Positions 1 to 19,044 of a stretch of 32,000 nucleotides of DNA are shown in pieces (positions within the stretch are counted from its first letter, which is position 1; the number at the start of each line of letters is the position of its first letter). The DNA is taken from positions 1-32,000 of the forward strand of contig CAVORH010000049.1 of the NCBI GenBank assembly GCA_963698565.1, given 5' to 3'. The position numbers and the translations under genes were made by a program. Source of the stretch: Ilumatobacteraceae bacterium. Lineage in GTDB: Bacteria; Actinomycetota; Acidimicrobiia; Acidimicrobiales; Ilumatobacteraceae. Under the pieces are notes generated by a model. That model saw nothing but the letters and a program-made list of their open reading frames with translations. It was not told where the DNA came from and ran no database searches.

Positions 1-32
1 CGGTTTCGGCGACTTCGTTCCCTGAACCGCCA

Positions 33-860
33 GTGCCTCGGCCCAGTGCCAAGGAGATCAACCCTGGCGAGTGGACCCTCACACCACCAACCGCCGCAAC
101 TCTCTTCCACCTCCCGGATTGGTGGGCGGCCGACGGGGGTTTGAGTGTTCGTCCACGTCTGTTTCCACTGCAGCCCGCCAACCTCATGAGGGGGCGACGC
201 CTTTGCAGGGCATTGCAGCACCAGATTCGACACTGCTTCGAATCAACCGTCCTTGTCGAGAGCGGCGCCGATGGCAACGAATTCATGGCTGAGCTCGTGG
301 CGATTCGAGTCGCCGGTGCCCTTGTACTTATCCAGTCGCTCAATGAGCTTTTCGCAAGCGCGCACCCGCGGACCGCTCCCGAGGATCCATCCTCGTCCCC
401 ATACGAGCGCCACCTCGAAGCTGACGAAGCGGGGCGAGTCGTTGCCGGGCTGAAGCTCATACGAAACGCCGAGACACACGACTCGACTGCGACCCTGGAT
501 TTCGATCTCGACAGAATGGTTACGGCGTTCTTCGACGACGGATCGTCCGGCCTCCGCGTTTTTCCGCAGTGGCGTCAATACGACGACTTGCCTGCATCAA
601 TTGCTCAGAACAAGAAGACCTCACCGAGATTCCACGACCACTACCGACAAGCTGTCGGTGGGACGATCCTGATGGAATCACTTCAAGACTCACTGCGGTT
701 CTTTCTCGACTGTGACGCCCGCATTGCGCGGCTTGCCCTCGGCGGTGAGCCCGCCGAACTGCCGCTGGAGTGCTTCCCGCTGCCTGTAGACCACGTCCAC
801 GGCTACGAGCGTCCGCATCCCTACTGGCCCTCGACGCGAGGGACCCACAGCGCGGAGTAG
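33..860 (+). CDS. hypothetical protein with HEPN-like Rx4H motif (possibly 5'-truncated by the window edge)
   Basis: 275-codon ORF from GTG 33. The same frame has no stop back to nt 3, so the gene may begin left of the window. Motif LIRNAETH (R at 462-464, H at 477-479) fits the R-N-x3-H form of the HEPN RNase signature and follows a helical-looking stretch. No other recognisable domain. Confidence 0.5.
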   Translation: MPRPSAKEINPGEWTLTPPTAATLFHLPDWWAADGGLSVRPRLFPLQPANLMRGRRLCRALQHQIRHCFESTVLVESGADGNEFMAELVAIRVAGALVLIQSLNELFASAHPRTAPEDPSSSPYERHLEADEAGRVVAGLKLIRNAETHDSTATLDFDLDRMVTAFFDDGSSGLRVFPQWRQYDDLPASIAQNKKTSPRFHDHYRQAVGGTILMESLQDSLRFFLDCDARIARLALGGEPAELPLECFPLPVDHVHGYERPHPYWPSTRGTHSAE

Positions 861-944
861 AAGGCGGCCATCAATTATTCGGCGACTGGGGCGTGAACCA
901 TTCCCGGTGGAACGGTCCACCGGCGCCGCCGTCCCGTCGAACCT

Positions 945-2569
945 ATGCTGGCCCCGTGTCACAGGACTTGCCTTGCCATCGGGTGCTTCCTCGCTTCACC
1001 AAGCGGGCTCGAGAACGAGCGCGGAACGGTCAGGGCAGCGATCAACGAGTTCAACGAGGAGGAGGCCTTTGCAAGCAGAGCGGCGTTCATTCCGTTCGGC
1101 TACGAGTCGTCACCTGGAGGTTTCGGTCGTCCGCAGGATGAGATCAACCACACGCTCAGGCAATGCGACTATGCGATCGTTCTGCTCGCTGACCGATGGG
1201 TTCGCCGCCAGGAGGTGACAACGGCTACACGAGCGGGACGGAGGAAGAGTACGAGGAAATCGTGAAGGCGATCGAAGACACTTCTCTCCCCATGCGTGAC
1301 GTGTTAGTCGCGTTCAAGTCGGTTCCTCGCGGTCAGATGGCTGACCCTGGCAAGGACCTCAAGAAGGTCCTCAAGTTCCGCAAGGACCTGGAGAAGAGCC
1401 ACGCGCTCTTCTACAAGCAGTTCGATACGGAGGAGGAGCTGTGCCGTTGGGTGCAGCAGAAGTTACGCGGCGGGGCCCGTTCCGATCTGGGGTGGGGAGG
1501 GGCAATCGCCCGACGATCTCGTGGACGATGCTGCAGATGCGGTGGACGAAGGCCTTCAGTCCTCTGACGAGATGGTCAGCAGAGCCTGGGAACTTGCGTC
1601 CGAGGGTTCGGTTACACAGGCCGAGGTGCTGTTCTCTCGCGCAGTCCGAAACGGCGGCCCCGAAACACTGCTCGAGAGCGCCCGGTTCATGCGCAGACGA
1701 GGACGCCTCGAAGCTGCGTACCAACTCGACCGCGAGTACATCGAGGCAACTGCATCGAAGGATGGCCTGGACATGAGGGTCAATCGGTCCAGAGCGCTCG
1801 CCAACATGGGTGTGGTTCGACGCAAGCAGGGCAATCTCCGAGAATCTAGGGGCCACCTAGTCGAAGCAGTCGCGGTTGCGCGTACTGCTGGACCCGACGG
1901 TGACGTGCCACTCGCGTATGCGCTGGACAACCTTGCACACACCGCTGCCCAGCAGGGAGACCTTGCGACCGCTGAGCACAGCTTGGAGGAAGCGCACTCG
2001 ATACGGGCGAGAGACGACGATCAGGCTGGAATTGCACAGTCGCTTATCAACCTCTCGCTGTCTCAGACGAGCCCGAGGGGACAACGAACTCGCGTTGGAA
2101 CAACTGACGACAGCGATCGGGATTCTTCGCAACTTGAATGGCCAAGAGACTTTGCTAGCCAACGCGCTGGTCGCGGCAGGAGAGGCAGCACTCGATCTCG
2201 AACGACCCGACGCCGAATCAATGGTACGAGAAGGCCTCGACCTGAACGAACGAGTAGCCAACAGTGACGGGATCAGCATTGCTTCCACGGTGCTCGCTCG
2301 CGTCGCCCTGTCTGCGGGGGACATTGACGAGGCGGAGCGGCACGCCGAGCGGACGGCAGAGGAGAGCATCTCATCAACGAACCAAGAGGGCCTGGGCGTT
2401 CTCGCGCACCTGCGGGGTTCGATCGCCCTTGCGCGGGGTGAGTATTCGGCAGCGGTGGAACATCTGGAAGAAGCATTTCGAGCTGTTCGAGCAAACCGGA
2501 TCAGTTCGACGCGCCGATTCCGCGCGGGCGGACCTAGCTACAGCTCGTGCCCGGCTTTCGAATGGCTAG
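945..2569 (+). pseudogene. DUF4062 (TIR/deoxyribosyltransferase-like) - TPR repeat protein, disrupted by about 4 frame changes
   Basis: Sensible protein sequence runs through four ORF-track pieces in different frames. 945-1200 gives CFLASPSGLENERGTVRAAI...CDYAIVLLADRW. ~1199-1500 gives GSPPGGDNGYTSGTEEEYEEIVKAI...ELCRWVQQKL. 1500-2078 and 2078-2476 are TPR-like A/L-rich repeats. 2477-2569 gives ELFEQTGSVRRADSARADLATARARLSNG*. The first two pieces together match the DUF4062 pattern (..ryGs...g.SyTE.Ey..A). Each junction lies at a homopolymer: GGG 1198-1200, G-runs 1470-1503, GGGG 2077-2080, TTT 2476-2478. Confidence 0.6.
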
Positions 2570-3162
2570 GCCTGAATCCAAGTCGCCGACGGCCAAAAGA
2601 AACAGGTGAGCTTGCCGTCCTCGAAAGTTCCGCATCCTGTGTCGATAAAGGCTCGACGGCGATCGACCATTGGTACTCGCGATCCCTGAGGGACGTGACC
2701 GGAGACGTGATATCGGTCGCCGTCGGCGGCGGAGGTCTGGCGCGGGTAGTGCGACGCGAGGATTTCGTTGCCTAAACGGAACTCCGCCTCCAGCGATTGG
2801 AGGAAGCGTCTGTGATCGGGTGATACTGCTGCTACGAACGCCGCTTCCCATTCAGCACCGATCGAAGAGATATAGGACCGGATGGTTGCAGCGCCCCCCA
2901 TCTGCAGAAACGCGTCAAGTCCTCGGCCCTCGAGCGCCGCTCGAAACGCAGCATCATGATTTCCCTCTAGGAAGGTGCACTCCACCGCCGATTGCTCCAG
3001 GCCGACCAGCACATCGAGAACCTGGCAACTGAATCGACCGCGGTTCACGTAGTCCCCGAGGAAGATCAAGCGTTCGACTTCGTCCTCCACGCGACCGAGG
3101 AGGGCCTGAAGACGATCGACGTCTCCATGAATGTCGCCAATGAATCCGAGCCGAGCCGTCAC
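2566..3162 (-). CDS. calcineurin-like metallophosphoesterase (lambda-phosphatase / ApaH-PrpE-like)
   Basis: Motifs GDIHGD, GDYVNRG, GNHD, GGAATIRSY, SGHVP and IDTGCG appear in canonical order. I chose the GTG at 3162 because it forms a GTGA overlap with the upstream stop (3159-3161) and sits 6 codons before GDIHGD. The ORF-track start at 3258 would overlap the upstream gene by 100 nt. Confidence 0.85.
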   Translation of the reverse strand: MTARLGFIGDIHGDVDRLQALLGRVEDEVERLIFLGDYVNRGRFSCQVLDVLVGLEQSAVECTFLEGNHDAAFRAALEGRGLDAFLQMGGAATIRSYISSIGAEWEAAFVAAVSPDHRRFLQSLEAEFRLGNEILASHYPRQTSAADGDRYHVSGHVPQGSRVPMVDRRRAFIDTGCGTFEDGKLTCFFWPSATWIQA

Positions 3163-3443
3163 AGCAGCACCTTCGGCAGAGCTGAGTAGTCGATCTCTGA
3201 ATTCGGGTCTGCGAATGCCAAAGTCGCCATCGTGGCCATCGACCGGTCGCGGTCCCACTCCGCGATGATCAGTTGTTGGATCGTCTCATAGTCAGCACTG
3301 TCGGCGGCGCCGACGAGGACACGCAGCCGGTCCCTCAAGTCGTTGATTTCGCTGACGCCGGGCGTAGGGCCGTCCTCAGGGTCTCTCGACCTCAGCAGCT
3401 CCACTAGTGCCGGATCCTCGAAACGGCGCGCCAACTCACTCAC
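3159..3443 (-). CDS. hypothetical 94-aa acidic protein, no recognisable domain, no His/Cys
   Basis: The ORF is coupled at both ends by 4-nt GTGA overlaps (3440-3443 and 3159-3162) to the nucleotidyltransferase and the phosphoesterase. Coding is inferred from this operon geometry. Confidence 0.6.
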   Translation of the reverse strand: MSELARRFEDPALVELLRSRDPEDGPTPGVSEINDLRDRLRVLVGAADSADYETIQQLIIAEWDRDRSMATMATLAFADPNSEIDYSALPKVLL

Positions 3444-3946
3444 CGAGAAGCATGGCTGACCGAGCGCGAGAGCGGTGAGGTAGATCGCAGATCGAAGGAA
3501 GTATCTCGAGCCACGCGAGCGAGACCCGCTAGAGGAGGATCGACTTGCCGAACACCGACATCGATGATCACGGAGAGGATACGAATCCGCTCAAGACTGG
3601 TAGCCGGATCTGGCTGCCCCATGCGCTGCAGCGCCAGGGTGAGGAACTCCTCCGCCTCATGAAGCACTCGACCATCACGTGCGAGGTGCATACCGAAAAG
3701 TGTGCCTCGCGCATCGAGGAACTGCTTCGGCGTGTAGCAGCTCAGTGTCACATTGCCCCTCACTCGCGTGCCGACTGCAGACTCGGTGACCGCAAGGAGG
3801 TCGAGGTCCGAGGTGTCACAGAAGTCCCCTCGTGCGTAGCTTCCATAGACCATGAGGCCAACGCACTTGTCTGGGAGGAGTGAGACTCCCAAGTTGAGCA
3901 GGTCTCGCGCGCACGTCGAGCGCGTGCAAGCTCGTCCGGACCTCAT
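3440..3946 (-). CDS. Pol-beta superfamily (minimal) nucleotidyltransferase domain protein
   Basis: GLMVYGSYARGDFCDTSDLDLL matches the G-S-x9-13-D-x-D NTase signature. A ~100-aa helical tail follows. The 5' end is uncertain; see the finding on ATG 4091. Confidence 0.75.
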   Translation of the reverse strand: MRSGRACTRSTCARDLLNLGVSLLPDKCVGLMVYGSYARGDFCDTSDLDLLAVTESAVGTRVRGNVTLSCYTPKQFLDARGTLFGMHLARDGRVLHEAEEFLTLALQRMGQPDPATSLERIRILSVIIDVGVRQVDPPLAGLARVARDTSFDLRSTSPLSRSVSHASR

Positions 3947-4105
3947 TGAAGTCGATCCGACTTGTACCCATGCTTCTGGACGCTAGCGGTGGGGCCCGTC
4001 GGCCGGAGGCGGCGAGCCGCACGATTGTCCACCATAAGGAATGAGTCTCGGCAACGGAGTCTTCGGGATGAAACCCGTTGCGGATCGCCATTTCGCGCAC
4101 CTCGG

Positions 4106-4138
4106 CTTCTAACGACTCGTTAGAAGAATCGTTAGAAG
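4106..4138. promoter_or_regulatory. operator-like array: perfect 9-3-9 palindrome plus a third direct copy of the 9-mer
   Basis: CTTCTAACG(4106-4114)-ACT-CGTTAGAAG(4118-4126)-AAT-CGTTAGAAG(4130-4138). The array lies in the least GC-rich 60 nt I counted. It sits between the tRNA terminator and the first possible start codons (4100/4091) of the minus-strand operon. Confidence 0.45.
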
Positions 4139-4151
4139 ATTGCTTGCAGAC

Positions 4152-4192
4152 GCAAGAAAGCCCTGGCGGATCTTGCGATCTACCAGGGCTTT
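4152..4192 (-). terminator. intrinsic terminator downstream of tRNA-fMet
   Basis: On the minus strand: AAAGCCCTGG-ta-GATC-GCAA-GATC-cg-CCAGGGCTTT followed by CTTGCG. This is a 10-bp outer stem, an inner GATC stem with a GCAA tetraloop, and a U-rich tail (UUUCUU). It starts 6 nt after the tRNA 3' end. Confidence 0.6.
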
Positions 4193-4197
4193 CGTAG

Positions 4198-4271
<74 letters not shown>

Positions 4272-4286
4272 TCGAAGTGGAGCATC

Positions 4287-4315
4287 ACTGTACGCCTGCT
4301 GCAGATGATTGACAA
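4287..4315 (-). promoter_or_regulatory. candidate sigma-70/SigA-type promoter for tRNA-fMet
   Basis: Minus strand: TTGTCA (4315-4310), 17-nt spacer, TACAGT (4292-4287). The -10 element ends 15 nt upstream of the mature tRNA 5' end. Confidence 0.5.
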
Positions 4316-4453
4316 CCGCCCGATCCGGCCGGTCGGGGCGTTGGGCCCTGGCCACGGCCGCACCGGTTCCCGATCATGGACTCATGGACGCAACGGCCGC
4401 GTCGGCGTGGACGATGACATCCACCGACCTCGCCTTCATGGTCGACCAGCTGT

Positions 4454-5509
4454 GTGCACAGTTCGACGAGGTCCTCGCTCCGGTCCTCGTCGGACGGCGT
4501 CATCCGGCTGCGAGCTGTCGACGGCGTCGACGAACTCCCATCGGGCGTCGCTGACGACCAGCATCCGGGCGCGTACCGCACCACGACCACCGGTGGGTCG
4601 CTCCGCTTCTCGTACGCGGTCGGGCCGGACTCGTTGAAGGCGATGGTGCACCCGCCCCGCAGCCCGGTCTGGGCGATGACCCGCGATGACACTGGCTCGA
4701 TCTCGGTGAGCGTCGCACCAACACGTCCCGTCCGCCGCGCCGTACTCGGCGCCCGGGCCTGCGACCTCGCCGCCCTCGAGCGTCTCGACCGCACCCAGCT
4801 GGCCGGGCCGCACCCCGACCGCCAACACGCCGCCGCACGTGCCCAGTTGTTCACGATCGGGGTCGACTGTTCCCAACCGGCCGCCACGTGCTTCTGCGAG
4901 TCGACCGGCACCGGCCCATCCGTCGACAGTGGCGCCGATCTGTCGATGACCGAGATGGGCGACGACGTGGTGCAGTACGTGTTGCGCGCCGGATCGGAGC
5001 AGGGCCGCGAGTTCGCCGAGTCGCTCGGGCTCGCGTCCGCGGGAGCCGACGTCGTCGCCGAGGCCGAGCGACTGCGTCGCAGCGTGCACACCACCGAGCG
5101 AGCGATGCCGACGGATGCGGCATCGATCGTGCTGGCCGATCTCGAACACCCACGCTGGGACGACGTGGCCGAACGCTGCCTCACCTGCGGCAACTGCACC
5201 GCCGTGTGCCCGACCTGCTTCTGCACCGACTTGGACGATCGAATGGAGCTCGACGGCCTCACCACCCATCGCGACCGGGTGTGGGACACCTGCTTCAGCC
5301 TGGAGTACTCACACCTCGGCGCCGGGCCCGCGCGCTCGTCGGCTCGCTCGCGGTACCGACAGTGGCTCACCCACAAGCTCGGCACCTGGCACGACCAGTT
5401 CGGCGAATCGGGGTGCGTCGGGTGCGGGCGCTGCATCACCTGGTGCCCCGTCGGCATCGACCTGACCGCCGAGGTCGACGCGCTCGCGACGTCGGGAGTC
5501 ACGCCATGA
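4454..5509 (+). CDS. hyhB: [NiFe]-hydrogenase group-3b-type beta subunit (4Fe-4S, AsrA/HydB-like)
   Basis: Two ferredoxin-type cluster motifs are present: [16 protein letters not shown] and [12 protein letters not shown]. The N-terminal half is AsrA-like ([29 protein letters not shown]). It is first in an ATGA-coupled beta-gamma-small-large order. 4454 is the first in-frame start, but family-like N-terminal sequence continues upstream in another frame from ATG 4414 (see finding). Confidence 0.85.
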
Positions 5510-6420
5510 CCGCCAGGACGACGCCGACCACCCGTTCTCGTGAACTCGTTGCGGAACTATTCCGCAACGAGTTCACGAGAATGGCTACGAGCACCGGCGA
5601 TCCGATGATCGAACCACGCGTCCACGTCGTGCGGTCGGTCACCCCCGAGACCCCGGGCGTGTTCACACTCGACGTCGTCCCGGTCGACGGCGCGCCCACT
5701 CCGTTCCTGCCGGCGCAGGTCAGCATGCTCGGCGCGTTCGGGATCGGCGAGGCGGCGATCTCGATCAGTTCCTCCGCCGCCGTCGATGATCACCACGAGT
5801 ACACGATCCGTCGGGCCGGAGCGATCACCACTGCACTCGGCGCGCTGCGGCCGGGTGACCAGTTGGCGATCCGCGGCCCGTTCGGCCGGCCGTGGGACGT
5901 CGACGCACTGCACGGCGATGTCGTGATCGCAGCCGGCGGCATCGGGCTCGCGCCCTTGCGCTCGGCCGTGTACGCCCTGCTCGACACGATGCAGGAGCGA
6001 CCGCATCGCCGCATCCTGTTGGTCGTCGGTGCCCGCAGCAGCGCAGATCTGCTCTACTCCGGCCAGTACGACGAGTGGCGAGCCCGCGGCATCGAGGTCG
6101 TCTCGACGATCGACACCGCGGAAGCCGGATGGTCGGGTCGGGTCGGGTTCGTACCGGACGTCGCCGCCGACCTCGATGTCGACTGGGCGATCACCGGAGC
6201 ACTGGTGTGCGGCCCCGACGTGATGATGCGACTGACCGCAGACCGCTTCATCGACCTCGGCGTCGCGCCCGGCTCGATCCAGCTGACGCTGGAACGGAAC
6301 ATGCAGTGCGCGACCGGCCGCTGCGGCCATTGCCAGCTCGGGCCGGTGCTGGTGTGCCGCGACGGCCCGGTGATGACCTATCCCGAGATCGCCGACGCGC
6401 TGCGGGTGCGGGAGCGCTGA
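5506..6420 (+). CDS. hyhG: hydrogenase gamma subunit (FAD/NAD(P)-binding oxidoreductase with C-terminal 2Fe-2S)
   Basis: ATG 5506 overlaps the beta stop (ATGA) and has GGGAG 7 nt upstream. The protein has a ferredoxin-reductase-type fold pattern ([26 protein letters not shown]). A C-terminal [20 protein letters not shown] cluster motif is present. The 4888 start in the ORF track was rejected. Confidence 0.85.
5535..5581. repeat. perfect 47-bp palindrome (22-bp arms, 3-nt centre) inside the first 26 codons of hyhG
   Basis: TTCTCGTGAACTCGTTGCGGAA-CTA-TTCCGCAACGAGTTCACGAGAA, verified base by base. It is about 45% GC in a ~67% GC context. Confidence 0.95.
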
Positions 6421-6430
6421 GGAGGCCACG

Positions 6431-7204
6431 ATGGAGGAACGACGACCGACCCTGGCGGTGTGGAAGTTCGCTTCGTGCGACGGATGCCAGCTCAGCCTGC
6501 TCGACTGCGAGGACGAACTGCTCGCCGTGGCCGACCGTGTCGCCATCTCCTACTTCCCCGAGGCCACCTCCACGATGGTCGAGGGTCCGTACGACGTCTC
6601 GCTCGTCGAGGGCTCGATCACGACCGCGCACGACGCCGAGCGCATCCTCGAGATCCGGCGCCAGTCGGGACTGCTCGTCACCATCGGTGCGTGCGCCACC
6701 GCCGGCGGCATCCAGGCCCTGCGGAACGGTGCCGACATCGCCGAGTTCACCTCGATCGTGTACGCCCACCCCGAGTACATCTCCACGCTCGCAACCTCCA
6801 CGCCGATCGCCGACCACGTCGACGTCGACCTCGAACTCCGCGGCTGCCCGATCGACCGTCGCCAGCTCGTCGCCACGATCGCCGCTCTACTGAACCGCCA
6901 CGTACTGCGGCTGCCGACCACCAGCGTGTGCACCGAATGCAAGGCGGCGTCGACGAGCTGCGTGATGGTGGCCCACGGCACCGCCTGCCTCGGACCGATC
7001 ACCCAGGCCGGCTGCGGGGCGCTGTGCCCGTCGTTCCACCGCGGCTGCTACGGGTGCTTCGGGCCGATGGAGGACCCGAACATCCCCGCGCTCGAGCACC
7101 GACTCGACCAACTCGGGATCGAACCGGAGGCGATCGATCGCCTGATGCGCACCTTCGACGTCGAGGCCTTCGCCCGCATCGCAGCCGAAGGAGCCCGGCC
7201 ATGA
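6431..7204 (+). CDS. hyhS: [NiFe]-hydrogenase small (delta) subunit, group 3 type
   Basis: The N-terminal [15 protein letters not shown] and [10 protein letters not shown] proximal-cluster motifs are present. C-terminal Cys clusters are [28 protein letters not shown] and CYGCFGP. Confidence 0.9.
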
Positions 7205-8517
7205 CCCACAAGTCACTCGACCTGCACGTGCCGACGCTCACCCGCGTCGAGGGCGAAGGGGCGATGCACGTCGTCGTCCGCGACGGCGTGGTCGAGGACG
7301 TCCAGCTCGAGATCTACGAGCCACCCCGCATGTTCGAGGCCTTCCTGCGCGGGCGGGCGCACCACGAACCCGTCGACATCACGGCGCGGATCTGCGGGAT
7401 CTGCCCGGTCGCCTACCAGATGAGCGCGGCCCACGCGATCGAACGGCTCGCCGGTGTGAGCGTCGACGGGCCGATCCGCGACCTGCGACGCCTGCTCTAC
7501 TGCGGCGAGTGGATCGAGAGCCACGTCCTGCACATGGCGTTCCTGCACGCACCGGACTTCCTCGGTGTCGACTCCGGGATCACGATCGCCCGGCAGGAAC
7601 CCGAGCTGATGACCGAGGTGCTGCACCTCAAGAAGACCGGCAACCGGATCATGGAGGTCGTCGGCGGACGTCCGATCCATCCGGTCAACGTGCGCCTCGG
7701 CGGGTTCTACCGGGCGCCGAGCCGGCGAGAGCTCCACGCCCTCGACGCCGACCTCGAACGGGCCCACGCCGCCGCGGTCGCTCTCGTCCGCTGGGTCGCC
7801 GGATTCGAATTCCCCTCGATCCCCGACCGCCTGGCCGAACACACCGAGTTCGTGTCGCTGCGTCACCCGCACGAGTACCCGCTCAACGAGGGCCGCATCG
7901 TGTCGAACCTCGGCCTCGACCTCGACGTCACCGAGTACGGCGAACGGCTCCGTGAGATCCACGTCGAACACTCGACCGCGCTGCACGCCACTCTCGACGG
8001 TGATCGTCGCTACCAGGTCGGCCCGCTCGCACGTTGGATGAACAACTTCGACCTGCTCACCGACTCGGTGCGCGACCTCGCCGGCGAGGTCGGCATCGGC
8101 GAGGTGGAGACCAACCCGTTCCGCAGCATCATCGTGCGGGGCCTGGAGACGGTGTGGGCGCTCGAGGAAGCCCAGCGCATCATCGACGCCTACACCCCGC
8201 CGCCCGAACCCGCCGTCGAGGTACCGCCCGTCGCCGGCACCGGGCAGGCAGCGACCGAGGCCCCGCGGGGCCTGCTCTACCACCGCTACGAACTCGACGA
8301 TGCCGGCATCATCGCCGACGCCGTGATCGTGCCACCCACCTCGCAGAACCAGATCGCGATCGAGGCCGACCTGCGCGACTTCGTGCAGTCACACCTCGAC
8401 CTCGACGACCACACGCTCGGTCACCGCTGCGAGCAGGTGATCCGCAACTACGACCCGTGCATCTCCTGCGCGACCCACTTCCTGCGCTTCAGCAGCGACC
8501 GGATCGGCGACCGATGA
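7201..8517 (+). CDS. hyhL: [NiFe]-hydrogenase large (alpha) subunit, group 3b type
   Basis: ATG 7201 overlaps the small-subunit stop (ATGA). The N-terminal Ni-binding motif RICGICP and C-terminal DPCISCATH are present, as is LTRVEGEG near the N-terminus. The 438-aa length fits group 3. The 6460 start in the track was rejected. Confidence 0.92.
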
Positions 8518-8972
8518 CCACGATCGTGATCGGCGTCGGCAACCGCGACCGCGGTGACGATGCCGTCGGCCCGATCGTGTGCGACCGGCTGCGCGCGCGG
8601 TACCCCGCCGACGCCCCCCTGCGGGTGATCGTGTGTGAGGGCTCGATCCTCGATCTCGCGCTCCACTGGCAGTCCGACGATCACGTGGTGATCGTCGACG
8701 CGATGCAGCCCGGCACGGCGCCGGGACGTGTCGTGACCTTCGACGCGACGGCGGAGCCGCTGCCGACGCCCGGGGCGGTGTCGACCCACGAGATCGACGT
8801 GTCGGTCGCGATCGAACTCGCCCGGGCGATCGGACGGATGCCGGCGCAGCTGCTCCTGATCGGCGTCGAAGCCGCACAGACCGAGTGGGGAACCCCACCC
8901 AGCCCGCCGGTCGACGCCGCGATCGAGGCCGTCGTCGACGAGTTCGTTCGCGACCACCTCGCCATGCGATGA
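8514..8972 (+). CDS. hydrogenase maturation endopeptidase (HycI/HoxW-like)
   Basis: ATG 8514 overlaps the large-subunit stop (ATGA). [19 protein letters not shown] is the typical GxGNxxxxDDxxG start of this protease family. Length is 152 aa. Confidence 0.85.
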   Translation: MTTIVIGVGNRDRGDDAVGPIVCDRLRARYPADAPLRVIVCEGSILDLALHWQSDDHVVIVDAMQPGTAPGRVVTFDATAEPLPTPGAVSTHEIDVSVAIELARAIGRMPAQLLLIGVEAAQTEWGTPPSPPVDAAIEAVVDEFVRDHLAMR

Positions 8973-9009
8973 GTTTCCGGGCCACCCCTCGGCCACGAAT
9001 CTCATCGCA
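8965..9009. terminator. hairpin between convergent genes (possible bidirectional terminator)
   Basis: TGCGATGAG (8965-8973) pairs with CTCATCGCA (9001-9009). An inner TTC/GAA pairing is also possible. It overlaps the endopeptidase stop codon. There is no clear U-tract. Confidence 0.35.
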
Positions 9010-9044
9010 GCGCAGTCGTTCGCTGGGCTCGGGGTGATTCGGGC

Positions 9045-9770
9045 TCAACCGGCGGCGAACGTCGCCAGCTGATCGAGCGTCGTCCGCCGCAGGCGATCGA
9101 GCTGTTGCGGGCGCAGCCGCTCGCACACCGTGCTCCAGTGCAGCGCCACCCAATCACCCACCTCGACAGCGATCGGACTCGTCACCTGTTCGATCACCGG
9201 CTCGCCGAAGCACAGCCGGCTGCCCTCCCACACCAGTGGCCGGCGGCGCGCCAGTGGCACGCCGGCACTGATGTCGACCACCTGCGCCCAGCTGACGCAA
9301 CACTGGTCGACGATGCGCAACGGTTCGTCGACGACGCCACGGCGCATCAACCCCGTCCACGGGGTGACGTGGAGTACGTGGTAGCTGTGGTGCGCGACGC
9401 CGACAGCGACGGACTCGTCGATCCGCGACCATGCTGATCCGGCCCGTCGCCGGAAACGCGCATCGATCGAGTTGCCGAAGTCGTGCACGCTCACCCGGTC
9501 GAGTAGCCCGTTGCCGATCCAGTACGCCTCGACCACGTCGGCGTCGAGTGGGTCGATGCGGTGTGCGGCACCGGCGAGCAACTCGAGGTACGGGTACGCG
9601 CCTTCGAACTGTGCAGCCAACTCGGCGAACCCCCCATCGATCGGTGCATGCAGGTACTCGCCGACGCCCCCGGACGAGACCGGACCACAGTGGCCGAGCC
9701 GGTTGGGAGGCGATGCGAACCGGACGAACCGCAACGGCCCGGAGGGCGCGTCGGGGGTTGCGGCGGGCAT
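9045..9770 (-). CDS. conserved hypothetical protein with HypC/HupF-like C-terminal segment
   Basis: ATG 9770 lies 2 nt after the upstream DMT stop. The 384-aa ORF-track version is an Arg-rich extension overlapping that gene, so I rejected it. N-terminal FVRFASPPNRLGHCGP is a motif I associate with hydrogenase-linked unknowns. The C-terminal CCVSWAQVVDIS...VEVGDWVALHWSTVCERL resembles the HypC pattern C-x3-P-x-VV-x-I ... vGDyVLvH. Confidence 0.6.
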   Translation of the reverse strand: MPAATPDAPSGPLRFVRFASPPNRLGHCGPVSSGGVGEYLHAPIDGGFAELAAQFEGAYPYLELLAGAAHRIDPLDADVVEAYWIGNGLLDRVSVHDFGNSIDARFRRRAGSAWSRIDESVAVGVAHHSYHVLHVTPWTGLMRRGVVDEPLRIVDQCCVSWAQVVDISAGVPLARRRPLVWEGSRLCFGEPVIEQVTSPIAVEVGDWVALHWSTVCERLRPQQLDRLRRTTLDQLATFAAG

Positions 9771-9772
9771 GA

Positions 9773-10747
9773 TCACGACGCCAGCCCGTGCGACGGCCGG
9801 GCCGGCACGCCGCGGCGAGCCGACGACGCGACGACCACGAGGACACCGGCGAGCACGACGAGGTAGCCGACGGCATCGACGGTGATCGGCACGCCTCGCA
9901 ACCCGCTGTTCAGCACGGCCGTCACCACCGCACCGGCGACGAGCACGGCGGTGACATCGGTGGCGGGCGCCATGGCGAGCGCTCGGTACCAGAGCGTCAC
10001 GAAGACACCGAGCGTCGTGCCGGTGACGGCGATCCACCACCACTGCCCGACCGTGAACCCGGCGAGCGCGCCGAGTTCGCCACGGGCGGCGAGCCATGCG
10101 AGCAACAGCGCCGCGCCTCCGAGCATGCGCACCACCGCCAGCCACCGCGCCGGGACCGTCGCCAGCAGGCGCTTGACGACGAGCACCTCGAGCGCCCACG
10201 CCAGGGTGGCAACGAGGATCAACAGCTCACCACGGCCGACACCCGAGATGCTGACACCGCCGCTGACGACGATGTGGCCGACGACCAGCAACGCGATCGC
10301 CAGCAGGTGTGCTGGCCGCAATCGCTCGTGCAGCACGACCGCGGCGCCGACGGCGACCCAGACGACGAGCGTCTTGTGGATGAATGCCGCATCGTTCGAT
10401 GTCGCGAGTGCGAGCCCCTCGAAGAACAGGACGAACGGCACGGCACCACCGATCACGGCAACCACGGCCAACCACGGCCACGTGGACCGACCGATCGATC
10501 CGGGCCGTTGCGCGGCCGGAACCGGCAGCACGACGAGCACGACCGTCAGCAGCACCCCGGCCCAGAGATTCTTGGCGGTCGTGTAAACCGTCGCGTCGTC
10601 GAAGTGACGCACCGCCAGTCCGTTGACGAACACGGCGACGCCGCTGACCAGCGCGGCCACGACCGCGGGCCAGAGCGGCCAGCGATCGCCACGGGCGGAG
10701 ACCGGCGTCGTGGCGCCAGCCCGATCGTTCTGCACCGACGTAGTCAT
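9773..10747 (-). CDS. DMT-superfamily (EamA-like) transporter
   Basis: The protein has about 10 hydrophobic helices in two EamA-like halves. ATG 10747 overlaps the hypC stop (ATGA). Confidence 0.8.
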   Translation of the reverse strand: MTTSVQNDRAGATTPVSARGDRWPLWPAVVAALVSGVAVFVNGLAVRHFDDATVYTTAKNLWAGVLLTVVLVVLPVPAAQRPGSIGRSTWPWLAVVAVIGGAVPFVLFFEGLALATSNDAAFIHKTLVVWVAVGAAVVLHERLRPAHLLAIALLVVGHIVVSGGVSISGVGRGELLILVATLAWALEVLVVKRLLATVPARWLAVVRMLGGAALLLAWLAARGELGALAGFTVGQWWWIAVTGTTLGVFVTLWYRALAMAPATDVTAVLVAGAVVTAVLNSGLRGVPITVDAVGYLVVLAGVLVVVASSARRGVPARPSHGLAS

Positions 10748-10977
10748 GTCCTCGCGTCCTCCTGTTCGAACGGATGCACGGCGTCGCCCAACTCCGAGTC
10801 GTCGGTGATCGCCAGCACGAACCCCATCGAGACGATCACGACATCGCCTGGTCGGACCGCCGCACCCTCGGCGAGCACCACGTCGAGCGACGCCGTCACC
10901 TCACGGCCGGCGAACTCGACGACGGCGCGCCGCTCGTCGAGCAGCCCGAGGACGCGGCCCACCTCACCCAGGCACAT
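10744..10977 (-). CDS. hypC: hydrogenase assembly chaperone HypC/HupF
   Basis: The start was set at ATG-TGC (10977) because HypC requires an N-terminal Met-Cys. The sequence is MCLGEVGRVLGL...AVVEF.G...ASLDVV...VRPGDVVIVSMGFVLAI, 77 aa. Confidence 0.85.
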   Translation of the reverse strand: MCLGEVGRVLGLLDERRAVVEFAGREVTASLDVVLAEGAAVRPGDVVIVSMGFVLAITDDSELGDAVHPFEQEDART

Positions 10978-11075
10978 GACGAACACCAGCCGTCCGCGTC
11001 GACGGTCCCATGACCTCACCCAACTGCGTGCGAGCCACCGGGGCCAGTGCCGAACGACCCTCTCGTACGAGCCGG

Positions 11076-11126
11076 CGTTCCCGTGAACAAGGTGCGCACC
11101 TGGGCCGCGCCTTGTTCACGGGAACG
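11076..11126. repeat. 17-bp-stem inverted repeat sharing termini and spacing with the 5535-5581 palindrome
   Basis: CGTTCCCGTGAACAAGG (11076-11092), 17-nt loop, CCTTGTTCACGGGAACG (11110-11126). It lies 3 nt after the nitroreductase stop and about 100-150 nt upstream of the hypC ATG, all on the minus strand. Confidence 0.9.
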
Positions 11127-11128
11127 GA

Positions 11129-11791
11129 TCAGTCGACCGGTTGCTTCCAGCGGTTGAGGTACGTGACGTCCGCAGCCGGGCGGCGCGGCGCCGGGGTGAA
11201 CGAGTCGCCGGTGTAGTAGCCAACCGCGAGCAGGCACACCTGTGTGACGGTCGGCGGGATGCCGAGCAGCTCGGCGACCTCGGCCTCGTGCTCGAGATGG
11301 AACGTGGTCCACGCCGAGCCGATCCCTCGCGACCGCGCCGCGAGCTGGAAGCTCCACACGCCCGGCAACACCGAGCCGTAGTAGCCCGCGTACGCACCGG
11401 TCGACGAGCCGTCGGGGACCCGATCGAGTCGCATCGACAGCACCAGGGCCGGCACCTCGTGGAGGTGTTCGACGAGGAACATCGCCGAATCGATCACCTT
11501 CGTGCTTCGATCGTCGCTGCGCACCTCGGTGTTGGCCTGCAGGTACGGCCGTCCGACCGCACCGAAGTACTCGGAGATCTTCGCCTTGGTGTCGGGATCG
11601 TCGATGATCATCCACCGGTTGCGTTCGAGGTTGCCGCCCATCGGCGCATGGCTCGCAATGTCGATGCACTCGAGCAGCTCCTCGTACGGCACCGGCCGCG
11701 TGAGGTCGAGCCGCTTGCGGACCTGCTTGGTGGTCTTCAGGAGGAGGTCGGTCTGGTCGAGATCGAAGCCGGTGATCGGGTGCTGTGCCAT
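11129..11791 (-). CDS. nitroreductase-family oxidoreductase
   Basis: The start was set at ATG 11791 (MAQHPITGFDL..). The R-x-R-L/F motif near the N-terminus (VRKRLDLTRPV) and the overall pattern (IDIASHAPMGGN, WMIIDD, AARSRGIGSAWT) are typical of the nitroreductase fold. Confidence 0.75.
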   Translation of the reverse strand: MAQHPITGFDLDQTDLLLKTTKQVRKRLDLTRPVPYEELLECIDIASHAPMGGNLERNRWMIIDDPDTKAKISEYFGAVGRPYLQANTEVRSDDRSTKVIDSAMFLVEHLHEVPALVLSMRLDRVPDGSSTGAYAGYYGSVLPGVWSFQLAARSRGIGSAWTTFHLEHEAEVAELLGIPPTVTQVCLLAVGYYTGDSFTPAPRRPAADVTYLNRWKQPVD

Positions 11792-11838
11792 CGGCCCAGA
11801 ATGGCATTCCGGCTCGCGCCGCCCGCTACGTTGCGCGC

Positions 11839-12783
11839 GTGACCACCACACCTGCCGACACGTCCAGCGCGGCAGCCGCCGACGCCCGGGACCTGTCACG
11901 GGGCTTGATCGGCGCCGGCATCGCCGTGTGCGCCTGGTCGACCGGCACCATCCTGGCCAAGTACATCGACATGGGCAGCCTGGCGATCGGCTTCTACCGA
12001 TTCCTGTTCTTCGCCGTGATGATCATCGTCTGGATGTACGCGCAGGGCACGCCGTTCCGCCTGCGAGTGATGCGCGACTCGCTGTGGGGCGGCATCGCGC
12101 TCGGCGCCGACATCGCCCTGTTCTTCTCGGCGGTGAAGCTCACCAGCGTCGTCAATGCCACGATCATCGGCTCGATGCAACCGATCGTCGTCGGAGTGAT
12201 CGCCGCCAAGTTCTTCGGCGAGAGGATCGGCATGCGCAACGTGTTGTGGTCGCTCGTCGCTCTCTGCGGCACGATCGTCGTGGTCGCATCGTCAGCCGGT
12301 GGCGACGGCAACGACTGGCTCGGCGACCTGCTCGCACTGGCCGCGATGCTGTCGTGGAGCGCCTACTTCATCACCTCGAAGAACTCGAAGAAGACCATGA
12401 CCTCGACCGAGTTCACCGCTGGCACGGCATTGTGGACGGTGATCATCTGCGCTCCGCTGGGGCTCGCATTCGGGCAGGACATGACGTGGCCGTCGCTGTC
12501 GAACTGGGGGCTGCTGATCGTGATGGCTGTCAGCTCCGGCCTGATCGGCCACGCGATGATGAACTGGTCGCTGGTGCGTATCCCACTCTGGGTCGGCTCC
12601 ACGTTCACCCTCCTGATCCCCGTGTTCTCCGCGCTGCTCGCCTGGCTGGTGCTCGGCGAGGCCGTCACGGCGATACAGGGTCTCGCGATGGCCGTGGTGA
12701 TCGGTGCGCTCGCCGTGGTCGTTCGCAACCAATCCCAGCCTGCTCCTGCCGCACCGACTGAACCACCAACCCCGTTTGCGTGA
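11839..12783 (+). CDS. DMT-superfamily (EamA-like) transporter
   Basis: The protein has ten predicted helices and EamA-like repeats. I preferred GTG 11839 because the ORF-track start 11785 overlaps the divergent nitroreductase start. The start remains uncertain. Confidence 0.75.
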   Translation: MTTTPADTSSAAAADARDLSRGLIGAGIAVCAWSTGTILAKYIDMGSLAIGFYRFLFFAVMIIVWMYAQGTPFRLRVMRDSLWGGIALGADIALFFSAVKLTSVVNATIIGSMQPIVVGVIAAKFFGERIGMRNVLWSLVALCGTIVVVASSAGGDGNDWLGDLLALAAMLSWSAYFITSKNSKKTMTSTEFTAGTALWTVIICAPLGLAFGQDMTWPSLSNWGLLIVMAVSSGLIGHAMMNWSLVRIPLWVGSTFTLLIPVFSALLAWLVLGEAVTAIQGLAMAVVIGALAVVVRNQSQPAPAAPTEPPTPFA

Positions 12784-18983: not shown

Positions 18984-19044
18984 CACCCCGTTTGCGCGCA
19001 ACTTCGGGTGGACCGGGCCACCCGAACCGCAACGCAAACGGGAT
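18984..19044. repeat. ~60-bp nested-hairpin intergenic repeat, copy B
   Basis: The outer stem pairs CCCGTTTGCG (18987-18996) with CGCAAACGGG (19033-19042). The inner stem pairs TTCGGGTGG (19003-19011) with CCACCCGAA (19018-19026). It shares ACCCCGTTTGCG, ACTTC..GGTGG and CGCAAACGGG blocks with copy A. Confidence 0.85.

Follow-up and report, generated by a model that had tools for sequence, protein, structure and literature searches.

The window analysed here is a stretch of 32,000 nucleotides (nt) from an Ilumatobacteraceae bacterium (Acidimicrobiia; GenBank assembly GCA_963698565.1, contig CAVORH010000049.1, positions 1 to 32,000). It contains the hyh operon for a group 3b [NiFe]-hydrogenase, and a perfect palindrome (5535–5581) lies in the first codons of hyhG, the gene for the gamma subunit. 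This palindrome is very probably the core of one copy of a dispersed 51-nt hairpin repeat that is specific to the Ilumatobacteraceae, an account that is structural and evolutionary in kind. The hyhG start codon overlaps the hyhB stop codon as ATGA. An earlier note on this DNA had named the hyh genes and had described the hyhG start as coupled to hyhB and supported by a ribosome-binding site; the Pfam matches, the match of HyhG to PDB entry 9nez_C (P. furiosus sulfhydrogenase I gamma, E = 2.8e-37) and a GGGAG motif upstream of the start codon all agree with that description (Table 1).

The two 22-nt arms of the palindrome are exact reverse complements around a CTA loop, which bears out the flawless structure described in the earlier note, and a repeat finder lengthens the arms to 25 nt at 96% complementarity with one mismatch (5532–5556 and 5560–5584). 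With up to three mismatches allowed, the 22-mer arm matches just these two sites in the window, none of 100 shuffles gave a match, and the palindrome is far above chance expectation. The GC content of the 47-mer is 48.9%, instead of the ~45% first given, as compared with 70.7% in the rest of 5001–6000. The 47-mer begins 26 nt past the hyhB stop codon (5507–5509) and 29 nt past the A of the hyhG ATG (5506), and both of these offsets had been given correctly. The natural unit is 51 nt or 17 codons in length, rather than the insert of 48 nt (16 codons) that had been proposed; it starts 24 nt after the hyhB stop, and its product is residues 10–26 of HyhG. As RNA, the unit is predicted to fold into a 24-bp hairpin at −41.4 kcal/mol (z = −11.4), in line with the 22-bp duplex, 24 bp with extensions, that had been anticipated, and as DNA it folds at −28.4 kcal/mol.

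Table 1 Features of the hyh locus and of the hairpin repeat in the window.
Feature	Positions	Strand	Evidence or remark
hyhB, iron-sulfur subunit	4454..5509	+	Pfam Fer4_22
GGGAG, Shine-Dalgarno-like	5494..5498	+	7 nt before hyhG ATG; read from sequence
hyhG, group 3b [NiFe]-hydrogenase gamma subunit	5506..6420	+	Pfam NAD_binding_1 + DHODB_Fe-S_bind; PDB 9nez_C
Complete 51-nt repeat unit = 17 codons	5533..5583	+	Consensus of 96 distinct copies; folding
Left arm of perfect 22-nt palindrome, TTCTCGTGAACTCGTTGCGGAA	5535..5556	+	Contains conserved end motif TTCTCGTGAAC
Loop, CTA	5557..5559	+	
Right arm, TTCCGCAACGAGTTCACGAGAA	5560..5581	+	Contains conserved end motif GTTCACGAGAA
ATG codon closing the 51-nt unit	5581..5583	+	Relatives mostly ACG
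hyhS	6431-7204	+	Pfam Oxidored_q6
hyhL	~7201-8517	+	Pfam NiFeSe_Hases; HycI protease gene next
Second window copy, CGTTCCCGTGAAC-N25-GTTCACGGGAACG	11076..11126		Inverted-repeat scan of window

One genome per prokaryotic species was scanned with the pattern GTTCNCGTGAACN{21,29}GTTCACGNG, and all counts given below are of the matches listed. The pattern is present in at least 114 genome blocks from ~45 genomes; among the matches listed, a single metagenome-assembled genome (MAG) contributes as many as 8 blocks. Approximately 110 of these 114 blocks belong to Ilumatobacteraceae, Ilumatobacter or Acidimicrobiales MAGs or to I. nonamiensis YM16-303. For the 3–4 matches from other phyla, the spacing is odd and the interior is not palindromic, and these were set aside as chance; a phage origin was likewise rejected, as the one match in viral contigs has a non-palindromic interior. 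The consensus of 96 distinct copies is CGTTCTCGTGAAC-N25/26-GTTCACGAGAACG, with a full unit of 51 nt. In these copies, the 13-nt ends pair mutually and are ~100% conserved, and the interior positions pair at 55–97% Watson–Crick, mostly at least 70%, with 2–6 pair types per position; every copy can thus fold into a hairpin of ~24 bp, either as RNA or as single-stranded DNA. Among the matches unfiltered for pairing, the interior is 25 nt in 103 of 122 and 26 nt in 15. A median of ~9 of the innermost 12 pairs are complementary, as compared with 3.3 in shuffled interiors.

The earlier note had likened the palindrome to a repeated element, and in addition to the copies in other genome blocks, a second copy is found in the window itself. 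This copy (11076–11126) shares CGTTCnCGTGAAC...GTTCACGnGAACG and the 25-nt spacing with the hyhG copy, differs from it in the interior (AAGGTGCGCACCTGGGCCGCGCCTT), and folds at −40.4 and −38.1 kcal/mol on its two strands. It lies 2 nt past the stop codon of a minus-strand nitroreductase gene (11129–11899), in the spacer upstream of an EamA gene (9773–10747). A third hairpin, with another interior, closely follows the hyh operon on a related contig from a metagenome (L001, 9210–9248; L numbers denote loci in related DNA). These three hairpins have differing interiors and one geometry, GTTC(T/C)CGTGAAC-N25-GTTCACG(A/G)GAAC. The interior of the hyhG copy recurs in identical form at a locus unrelated to hyh (L109) and in near-identical form at L171 and L192, and one element-bearing hyhG locus (L004) belongs to an Ilumatobacteraceae MAG with further copies, for example L104. 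The family is apparently undescribed so far, and its kind is well known: no description was found in the literature on palindromic repeats in Ilumatobacter, and nothing relevant in that on repetitive extragenic palindromic (REP) elements in Actinobacteria or on DUF559. In Rfam, the whole window gives just a tRNA at gathering score, and the matches near the palindrome are far below gathering (27.5 versus 380 bits, 20.6 versus 142 and 17.5 versus 57).

The position of the copies relative to genes was determined with upstream stop codons called from open reading frames (ORFs) filtered by third-position GC (GC3). For 83 of the 112 listed copies, a GC3-supported stop codon lies at most 150 nt upstream. 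In 15 of these 83, the stop codon is the TGA within CGTGAAC, and the remaining copies near stops are mostly 7–30 nt past the stop. The hyhG copy, measured likewise from the hyhB stop to its CGTGAAC core, is at 29 nt. In addition, 31 listed copies are found between two convergent stop codons. The usual habit of the family is like that of REP elements, directly 3′ of stop codons, and not like that of Rickettsia palindromic elements (RPEs); residence in frame is exceptional. As the hyhG copy occupies the usual site of the family, the oddity of this locus is that hyhG starts upstream of the element.

The proposal of the earlier note that a repeated palindromic element has been inserted in frame into hyhG is upheld by comparison with relatives. 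Among the best 120 HyhG homologues, ~35 (77–87% identical, 301–306 aa) contain an element-type peptide at one site, with the same codon and phase. The element is absent from the remaining close homologues and from every more distant one (for example, MTTSDPMVEPR... and MTTVDLATTRVTDDPM...). In the carriers, the residues in question are always encoded by palindromic DNA. In a neighbour-joining tree of the HyhG protein core, the carriers all fall in the nearest clade, where they are mixed with non-carriers, and two non-carriers retain remnants of a deletion: GSRELVA joined to DDPM, with the left arm only, in P0048/L203, and GSR joined to DPM in P0033. Because carriers interleave with non-carriers and remnants exist, the sequences favour one old gain followed by repeated deletions. 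The codon usage of the element is foreign to the host genes: its TCT, GTT and AGA codons are never used for their amino acids in the hyh genes (0%), its CTA codon is used once in four genes (1%), and GC3 is 0.53 in the element versus 0.89 in the hyh genes. The in-frame ATG at the end of the palindrome is present as described, and it is the last codon of the unit itself. In relatives, this codon is mostly ACG and also ACA, ACC or AGC, with ATG in the window alone; it is thus a local point change, and it is an unlikely start codon since there is no Shine-Dalgarno sequence before it and it is positioned within the stem.

Confirmed in-frame copies number two among ~120, that in hyhG and one in the gene for a DnaE-type DNA polymerase III alpha subunit (L144, 742–780, minus strand). 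The latter is in frame within the HHH_6 region of a 1165-aa ORF; GC3 is 0.92 and 0.98 on its two sides, and the HHH_6 match is stretched by the insert. A copy with a 26-nt interior was also observed in an open frame at L100 (4076–4115) and L189 (4176–4215), with high third-position GC on both sides, just upstream of the twin-arginine-like signal (RRQVLVRSGG...) of a molybdopterin oxidoreductase (Oxidored_molyb). This copy may be coding, may be part of a leader, or may join two fused genes.

Comparison of 13 orthologous hyhG copies indicates which feature of the element is constrained. Identity reaches 98.9% in the end motifs CGTGAAC and GTTCACG, rare third positions included, as compared with 70% for third positions in the gene body. 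When the element is taken as a whole, its third positions are only modestly more alike than those of the gene body (0.77 versus 0.70), and the strong signal is in the end motifs alone (0.99). The interior differs in some orthologues, with alterations on both arms: it reads TCGTGCGGGAAC..GTCCCGCACGA in L199 and TCGTTGGCGAC...CTCGCCAACGA in L200 and L204. In these copies, 21–22 of the 24 pairs are kept, and the interiors resemble types found at other loci of other genomes. The near-invariance of the end motifs and the paired changes in the arms argue for constraint on the nucleotides and the hairpin and not on the peptide. We infer that maintenance acts on the hairpin, as DNA or as RNA, and that the peptide segment is carried along almost neutrally in a tail that varies and is poorly modelled. 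In a separate observation, the left outer stem of L004–L008, L202 and L205 has changed from GTTCT to GAACT, which yields GAACTCGT-GAACTCGT, a perfect tandem, and disrupts the outer pairing; this looks like a templated two-base change.

Several observations weigh against the account of the palindrome as a maintained copy of a dispersed hairpin repeat within hyhG. The copies in L202 and L205 have decayed to 14–16 of 24 Watson–Crick pairs, and since the hairpin is decayed or deleted in some lineages, it is dispensable for the operon. On the sense strand, there is no excess of G·U over A·C pairs (17 versus 25, p = 0.28), and no bias is seen in loop orientation relative to the upstream gene; because of these two results, the selected structure is not assignable to RNA over DNA. 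No T-tract follows the hairpins, with 0 terminator-like sites in 4000–12000 and a consensus past the stem of ...GAGAACGG, so that the family hairpins do not qualify as canonical intrinsic terminators. Among the ORFs that neighbour the copies, no mobilising enzyme was identified, and the one comparison of a filled with an empty site, that of the window with L009, gives an ambiguous 2-nt CG and no clear target-site duplication. The copy number is an estimate from density, which is ~1 per 50–70 kb: pattern-selected blocks hold ~1 additional copy per 69 kb, hyh-selected DNA has two additional copies in 95 kb, and the densities in the sampled DNA suggest tens to ~100 copies per genome. The element-free locus L009 (~326–385) matches the window exactly over the 46 nt that lead up to the insertion point and differs by a 55-nt block, and its ATGA start is not in phase with the gene body; the frame from this ATGA is a 15-codon mini-ORF that closes in a second ATGA, at HyhG Met34. 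The 55-nt difference and the frameshift may be real or may reflect an error of metagenome assembly. Finally, some gene callers begin HyhG at Met34 (L204); together with the frame of L009, this makes a downstream start a minor rival.

The last two of these observations bear on whether the element is translated at all. It could instead be an intercistronic, non-coding element, with HyhG starting at Met34 (DPM...) and the ORF from the ATGA being a short leader or untranslated. Such an arrangement would fit with the usually extragenic position of the family, with the out-of-phase mini-ORF of L009, and with the choice of Met34 by the gene caller both in L204, though the upstream frame is open there, and in several 271-aa proteins. 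It would also fit with the predicted disorder of the HyhG tail: in the AlphaFold model, residues 1–35 have a predicted local distance difference test (pLDDT) score below 50 and no secondary structure, and the first strand is at residue 38. The disordered tail is weak evidence, because the model is mediocre (mean pLDDT of 61.8). The tail tolerates change: ~0 to 35 residues precede the DP(M/L) motif among homologues, and 9nez_C aligns from HyhG residue 62 onward. A start at Met34 is nonetheless unlikely. Distant homologues have DPLL in place of DPM, so Met34 is not a conserved start, and no Shine-Dalgarno-like motif precedes it, whereas both carriers and non-carriers keep GGAG-like motifs 7–8 nt ahead of the ATGA start. 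In 13 of 13 orthologous carrier DNAs, the element is at one codon, in phase 0, with the frame open from the ATGA start, and the tail lengths vary by whole codons alone, with 31, 32 or 33 codons before DPM. The element-free relatives L010 and L011 are likewise in frame from the ATGA, and the third positions that precede the element are GC-rich in the hyhG frame. As judged from these reading frames, the element is probably translated as part of HyhG.

Three further explanations dispense with a dispersed repeat or with selection on its hairpin. In one, the 12–13-nt end motif (the GTTCTCGTGAAC word) would be an uptake word of the DNA uptake sequence (DUS) or uptake signal sequence (USS) type, or a word recognised by a protein, and the hairpins would not be mobile repeats. 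Words of this kind frequently occur as inverted pairs that also serve as terminators. The motif is indeed lineage-specific, occurs in inverted pairs at the 3′ ends of genes, and is itself a small palindrome (GTTCnnnnGAAC). This explanation is very unlikely, however, since solitary near-matches in the 32-kb window, with the element ends removed, show no excess (11 versus 6.5 ± 3.0 expected), and since the fixed 25/26-nt spacing and the self-complementary interior are unpredicted by independent pairs of words. Interior types also recur at unrelated loci and are genome-specific, which points to the copying of whole units. Similarly, it is highly improbable that the palindrome is a locus-specific regulatory hairpin, such as an RNase III site, a ribosome roadblock or an operator, that evolved in place and resembles the others by chance. 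The high stability of the hairpin (−41.4 kcal/mol), the retention of the same site in many relatives and the pairing of the window copy, the most perfect of all orthologues with 23 Watson–Crick pairs and one G·U pair of 24, would be expected for such a hairpin. Chance resemblance is contradicted by the more than 100 unrelated loci at which these ends and this geometry recur and by the identical 25-nt interior at L109 and its near-identical forms. In addition, the hairpin is lost or decayed in several lineages with an intact operon, and its distance to the hyhB stop is typical of the family. The least credible of these explanations is selection on the peptide, with a functional N-terminal HyhG helix and the palindrome as its by-product. 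Although the peptide is recognisably conserved in ~35 relatives, codons that are otherwise avoided are retained base for base (CGT GAA ... TTC ACG AGA), and the variants track the paired changes of the arms (V-A-E...F-R-N to V-R-E...P-H or V-G-D...A-N). Moreover, close relatives are without the peptide, the region is modelled as disordered, and identical DNA is present in non-coding spacers.

A dispersed hairpin repeat remains the preferred account, and its copies appear to be subject to turnover. The mean similarity of interiors is 0.671 within genomes versus 0.475 overall, a difference that was matched in 0 of 1000 label permutations, and the interior types are genome-specific. Orthologous sites form 20 groups in which the flanks on either side align at ~76–92% identity. 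In these groups, orthologous non-coding spacers often hold the same ends with unrelated interiors (mean identity of 0.55), and the lengths are unequal in 9 of 39 pairs; the interiors of the hyhG copies are more alike among orthologues (0.77). The alignments place copies in the same short spacers between convergent genes, not necessarily at the same nucleotide position. These results fit both replacement or conversion of units in place and repeated colonisation of the same spacers. The genome-specific types and the differing orthologous spacers recall the "evolution by gene conversion" that was reportedly proposed for REP elements. Because interiors are genome-specific, orthologous spacers whose flanks are 80–90% identical carry unrelated interiors, some of them unequal in length, and hyhG copies switch among types that are present at other loci too, an active mechanism specific to the hairpin ends can be considered as what sustains the family, in which whole units are copied or replaced at fixed sites in a conversion-like manner, by a nuclease or a transposase other than a REP-associated tyrosine transposase (RAYT). 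This idea is tentative and on the unlikely side. If it is true, segments of a hydrogenase and of DnaE are rewritten by a DNA-level hairpin process and not by protein selection.

Clustering of 686 ORFs from the 114 listed element-bearing blocks revealed no recurrent transposase-like family and no RAYT adjoining the copies. Nine blocks have two hairpins 1.1–1.3 kb apart, and seven of these pairs bracket a gene with AbiEi_4 and REase_MTES_1575 matches (L156, 1384–2513; L190, 4500–5650; L141, 3335–4468; L126, 3890–5041; L102, 6737–7873; L142, 1208–2336; L107, 4990–6147). The bracketed gene encodes ~310 aa, with an AbiEi_4 helix-turn-helix and a REase_MTES_1575-like nuclease. The flanking hairpins are inverted, and they are alike within each genome and different between genomes. 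In L156, the stop codon of this gene is the TGA within TTCTCGTGAAC; its L142 version carries a frameshift, and its L107 version is degenerate. It was considered as a REPtron-type mobilisation unit and rejected: the flanks of all seven align, so that the seven are one orthologous locus and provide no evidence of mobility. With respect to transposable elements of the miniature inverted-repeat type (MITEs), the unit has inverted-repeat ends but is a single hairpin throughout, and no parent insertion sequence was seen.

In habit, REP elements are the nearest known system. REP elements, bacterial interspersed mosaic elements (BIMEs) and the paired REPINs of Enterobacteria and Pseudomonas, which are mobilised by the Y1 transposases called RAYTs, are likewise short, dispersed, imperfect palindromes that form stable hairpins, and REP elements likewise lie mainly 3′ of genes and between convergent genes. 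In contrast to the ~20–40 nt of REP elements, the hyhG-type unit is 51 nt long, its ends are invariant and its interior is variable in sequence yet fixed in length, and there is no sequence similarity. The 5′ GTAG tetranucleotide at the hairpin foot, which RAYTs recognise and cleave, is absent from the consensus ends, and the Ilumatobacteraceae copies are singletons, unlike the doublets of REPINs. As there is no GTAG and no RAYT was found adjoining the copies, the family was not filed as REP. To our knowledge, REP/RAYT systems have not been described from this actinobacterial lineage. The mycobacterial interspersed repetitive unit (MIRU) is said to be an actinobacterial repeat that is situated at gene junctions within operons, with reading frames that overlap the neighbouring genes. 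MIRUs are direct tandem repeats of 46–101 bp, however; they are non-palindromic and have no sequence relationship to the hairpin family.

The earlier note had compared the palindrome with RPEs, and this comparison holds for the in-frame insertion. In R. conorii, many unrelated genes carry an integrated RPE, nearly half of the copies are within ORFs, and RPEs are ~100–150 bp in size (PMC10969869). As in RPEs, a palindromic insert in frame adds a peptide without destroying the protein, both in hyhG and in the DnaE gene of L144, where translation is inferred. The likeness does not extend to the family as a whole, which is mostly extragenic and REP-like. RPEs are elements of Rickettsia of ~150 bp for which coding insertions are very frequent, whereas the present units are 51 nt long, unrelated in sequence and host, and only exceptionally coding; none of the matches listed for the family pattern is from Rickettsia. 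A terminator-like stem-loop downstream of genes is the main feature of the dispersed repeat SPRITE (PMC3049150; mentioned in PMC10969869), which, like the MIRU, is a looser analogue. SPRITE resembles canonical terminators and belongs to a low-GC Firmicute, whereas the hairpins described here have much longer stems, no T-tract and an unrelated sequence.

The arrangement at hyhG is proposed to have arisen by insertion at the usual place of the family, 24 nt past the hyhB stop. Because hyhB and hyhG overlap (ATGA) without a spacer, the unit fell in the first hyhG codons, and because its 51 nt make 17 codons that lack a stop in this phase, it was read as an added stretch of the N-terminal tail. 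The insertion appears to be old, being shared by ~35 HyhG proteins, and to have been deleted repeatedly since, with the arms changing as pairs. On the hyhBGSL transcript, the hairpin could act, as REP-type hairpins do and as the family may elsewhere, as a barrier to 3′-exonucleases and thus a stabiliser for hyhB, as an attenuator, or as a target of RNase III. The predicted 24–25-bp stem would start 27–28 nt past the hyhG start codon, beyond the footprint of the initiating ribosome, though the first elongating ribosomes would have to melt it. Through any of these roles, the hairpin may lower or uncouple hyhG-S-L expression relative to hyhB. At 24–25 bp and a modelled −41 kcal/mol, the RNase III substrate or ribosome block that the earlier note envisaged is physically plausible. 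A measurable effect of the hairpin on the mRNA is possible, if doubtful. For REP elements near stop codons, effects on the stability of the mRNA and on translation of the gene upstream have been reported. Should the present hairpin alter the hyhB : hyhGSL ratio, expression of the group 3b hydrogenase would be expected to differ between strains that carry the element and strains that do not.

These results explain the anomaly in the hydrogenase operon as the insertion of a repeat element. They add a REP-like family to the Acidimicrobiia, a widespread and mostly uncultured aquatic and soil lineage in which no earlier account of repeats of this sort was found. The architecture of the family is unusually clean, with invariant ends and a self-complementary interior of fixed length that varies freely. 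Since the unit exists both under coding constraint and in spacers, it offers a natural experiment on hairpin selection versus arm-to-arm conversion. For annotation, 17-residue segments of the type RSRE...FTRT in Ilumatobacteraceae proteins should be treated with caution because they derive from repeats, and start-codon calls are unstable at such junctions, with 304-aa and 271-aa calls made for one locus type.

Other features of the window and of the hyh surroundings were also observed. Two inverted repeats in the window do not belong to the family. One, with 19-nt arms, is flanked by the HycI protease and DUF6390 genes, which converge there (8965–9009), and the other has 28-nt arms at 75% complementarity, CCCGTTTGCGCGCAAC.../...GCAACGCAAACGGG (18987–19042). 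The first part of the window (1–4300) has a GC content of 0.605–0.62, versus 0.66–0.70 elsewhere in the window. This part adjoins a tRNA-Met gene (4197–4271, minus strand), encodes TPR proteins, a metallophosphoesterase and a nucleotidyltransferase, and may be an island integrated at the tRNA. In the related contig L001, a phage-type integrase and an HTH_17 gene are found upstream of the hyh operon.

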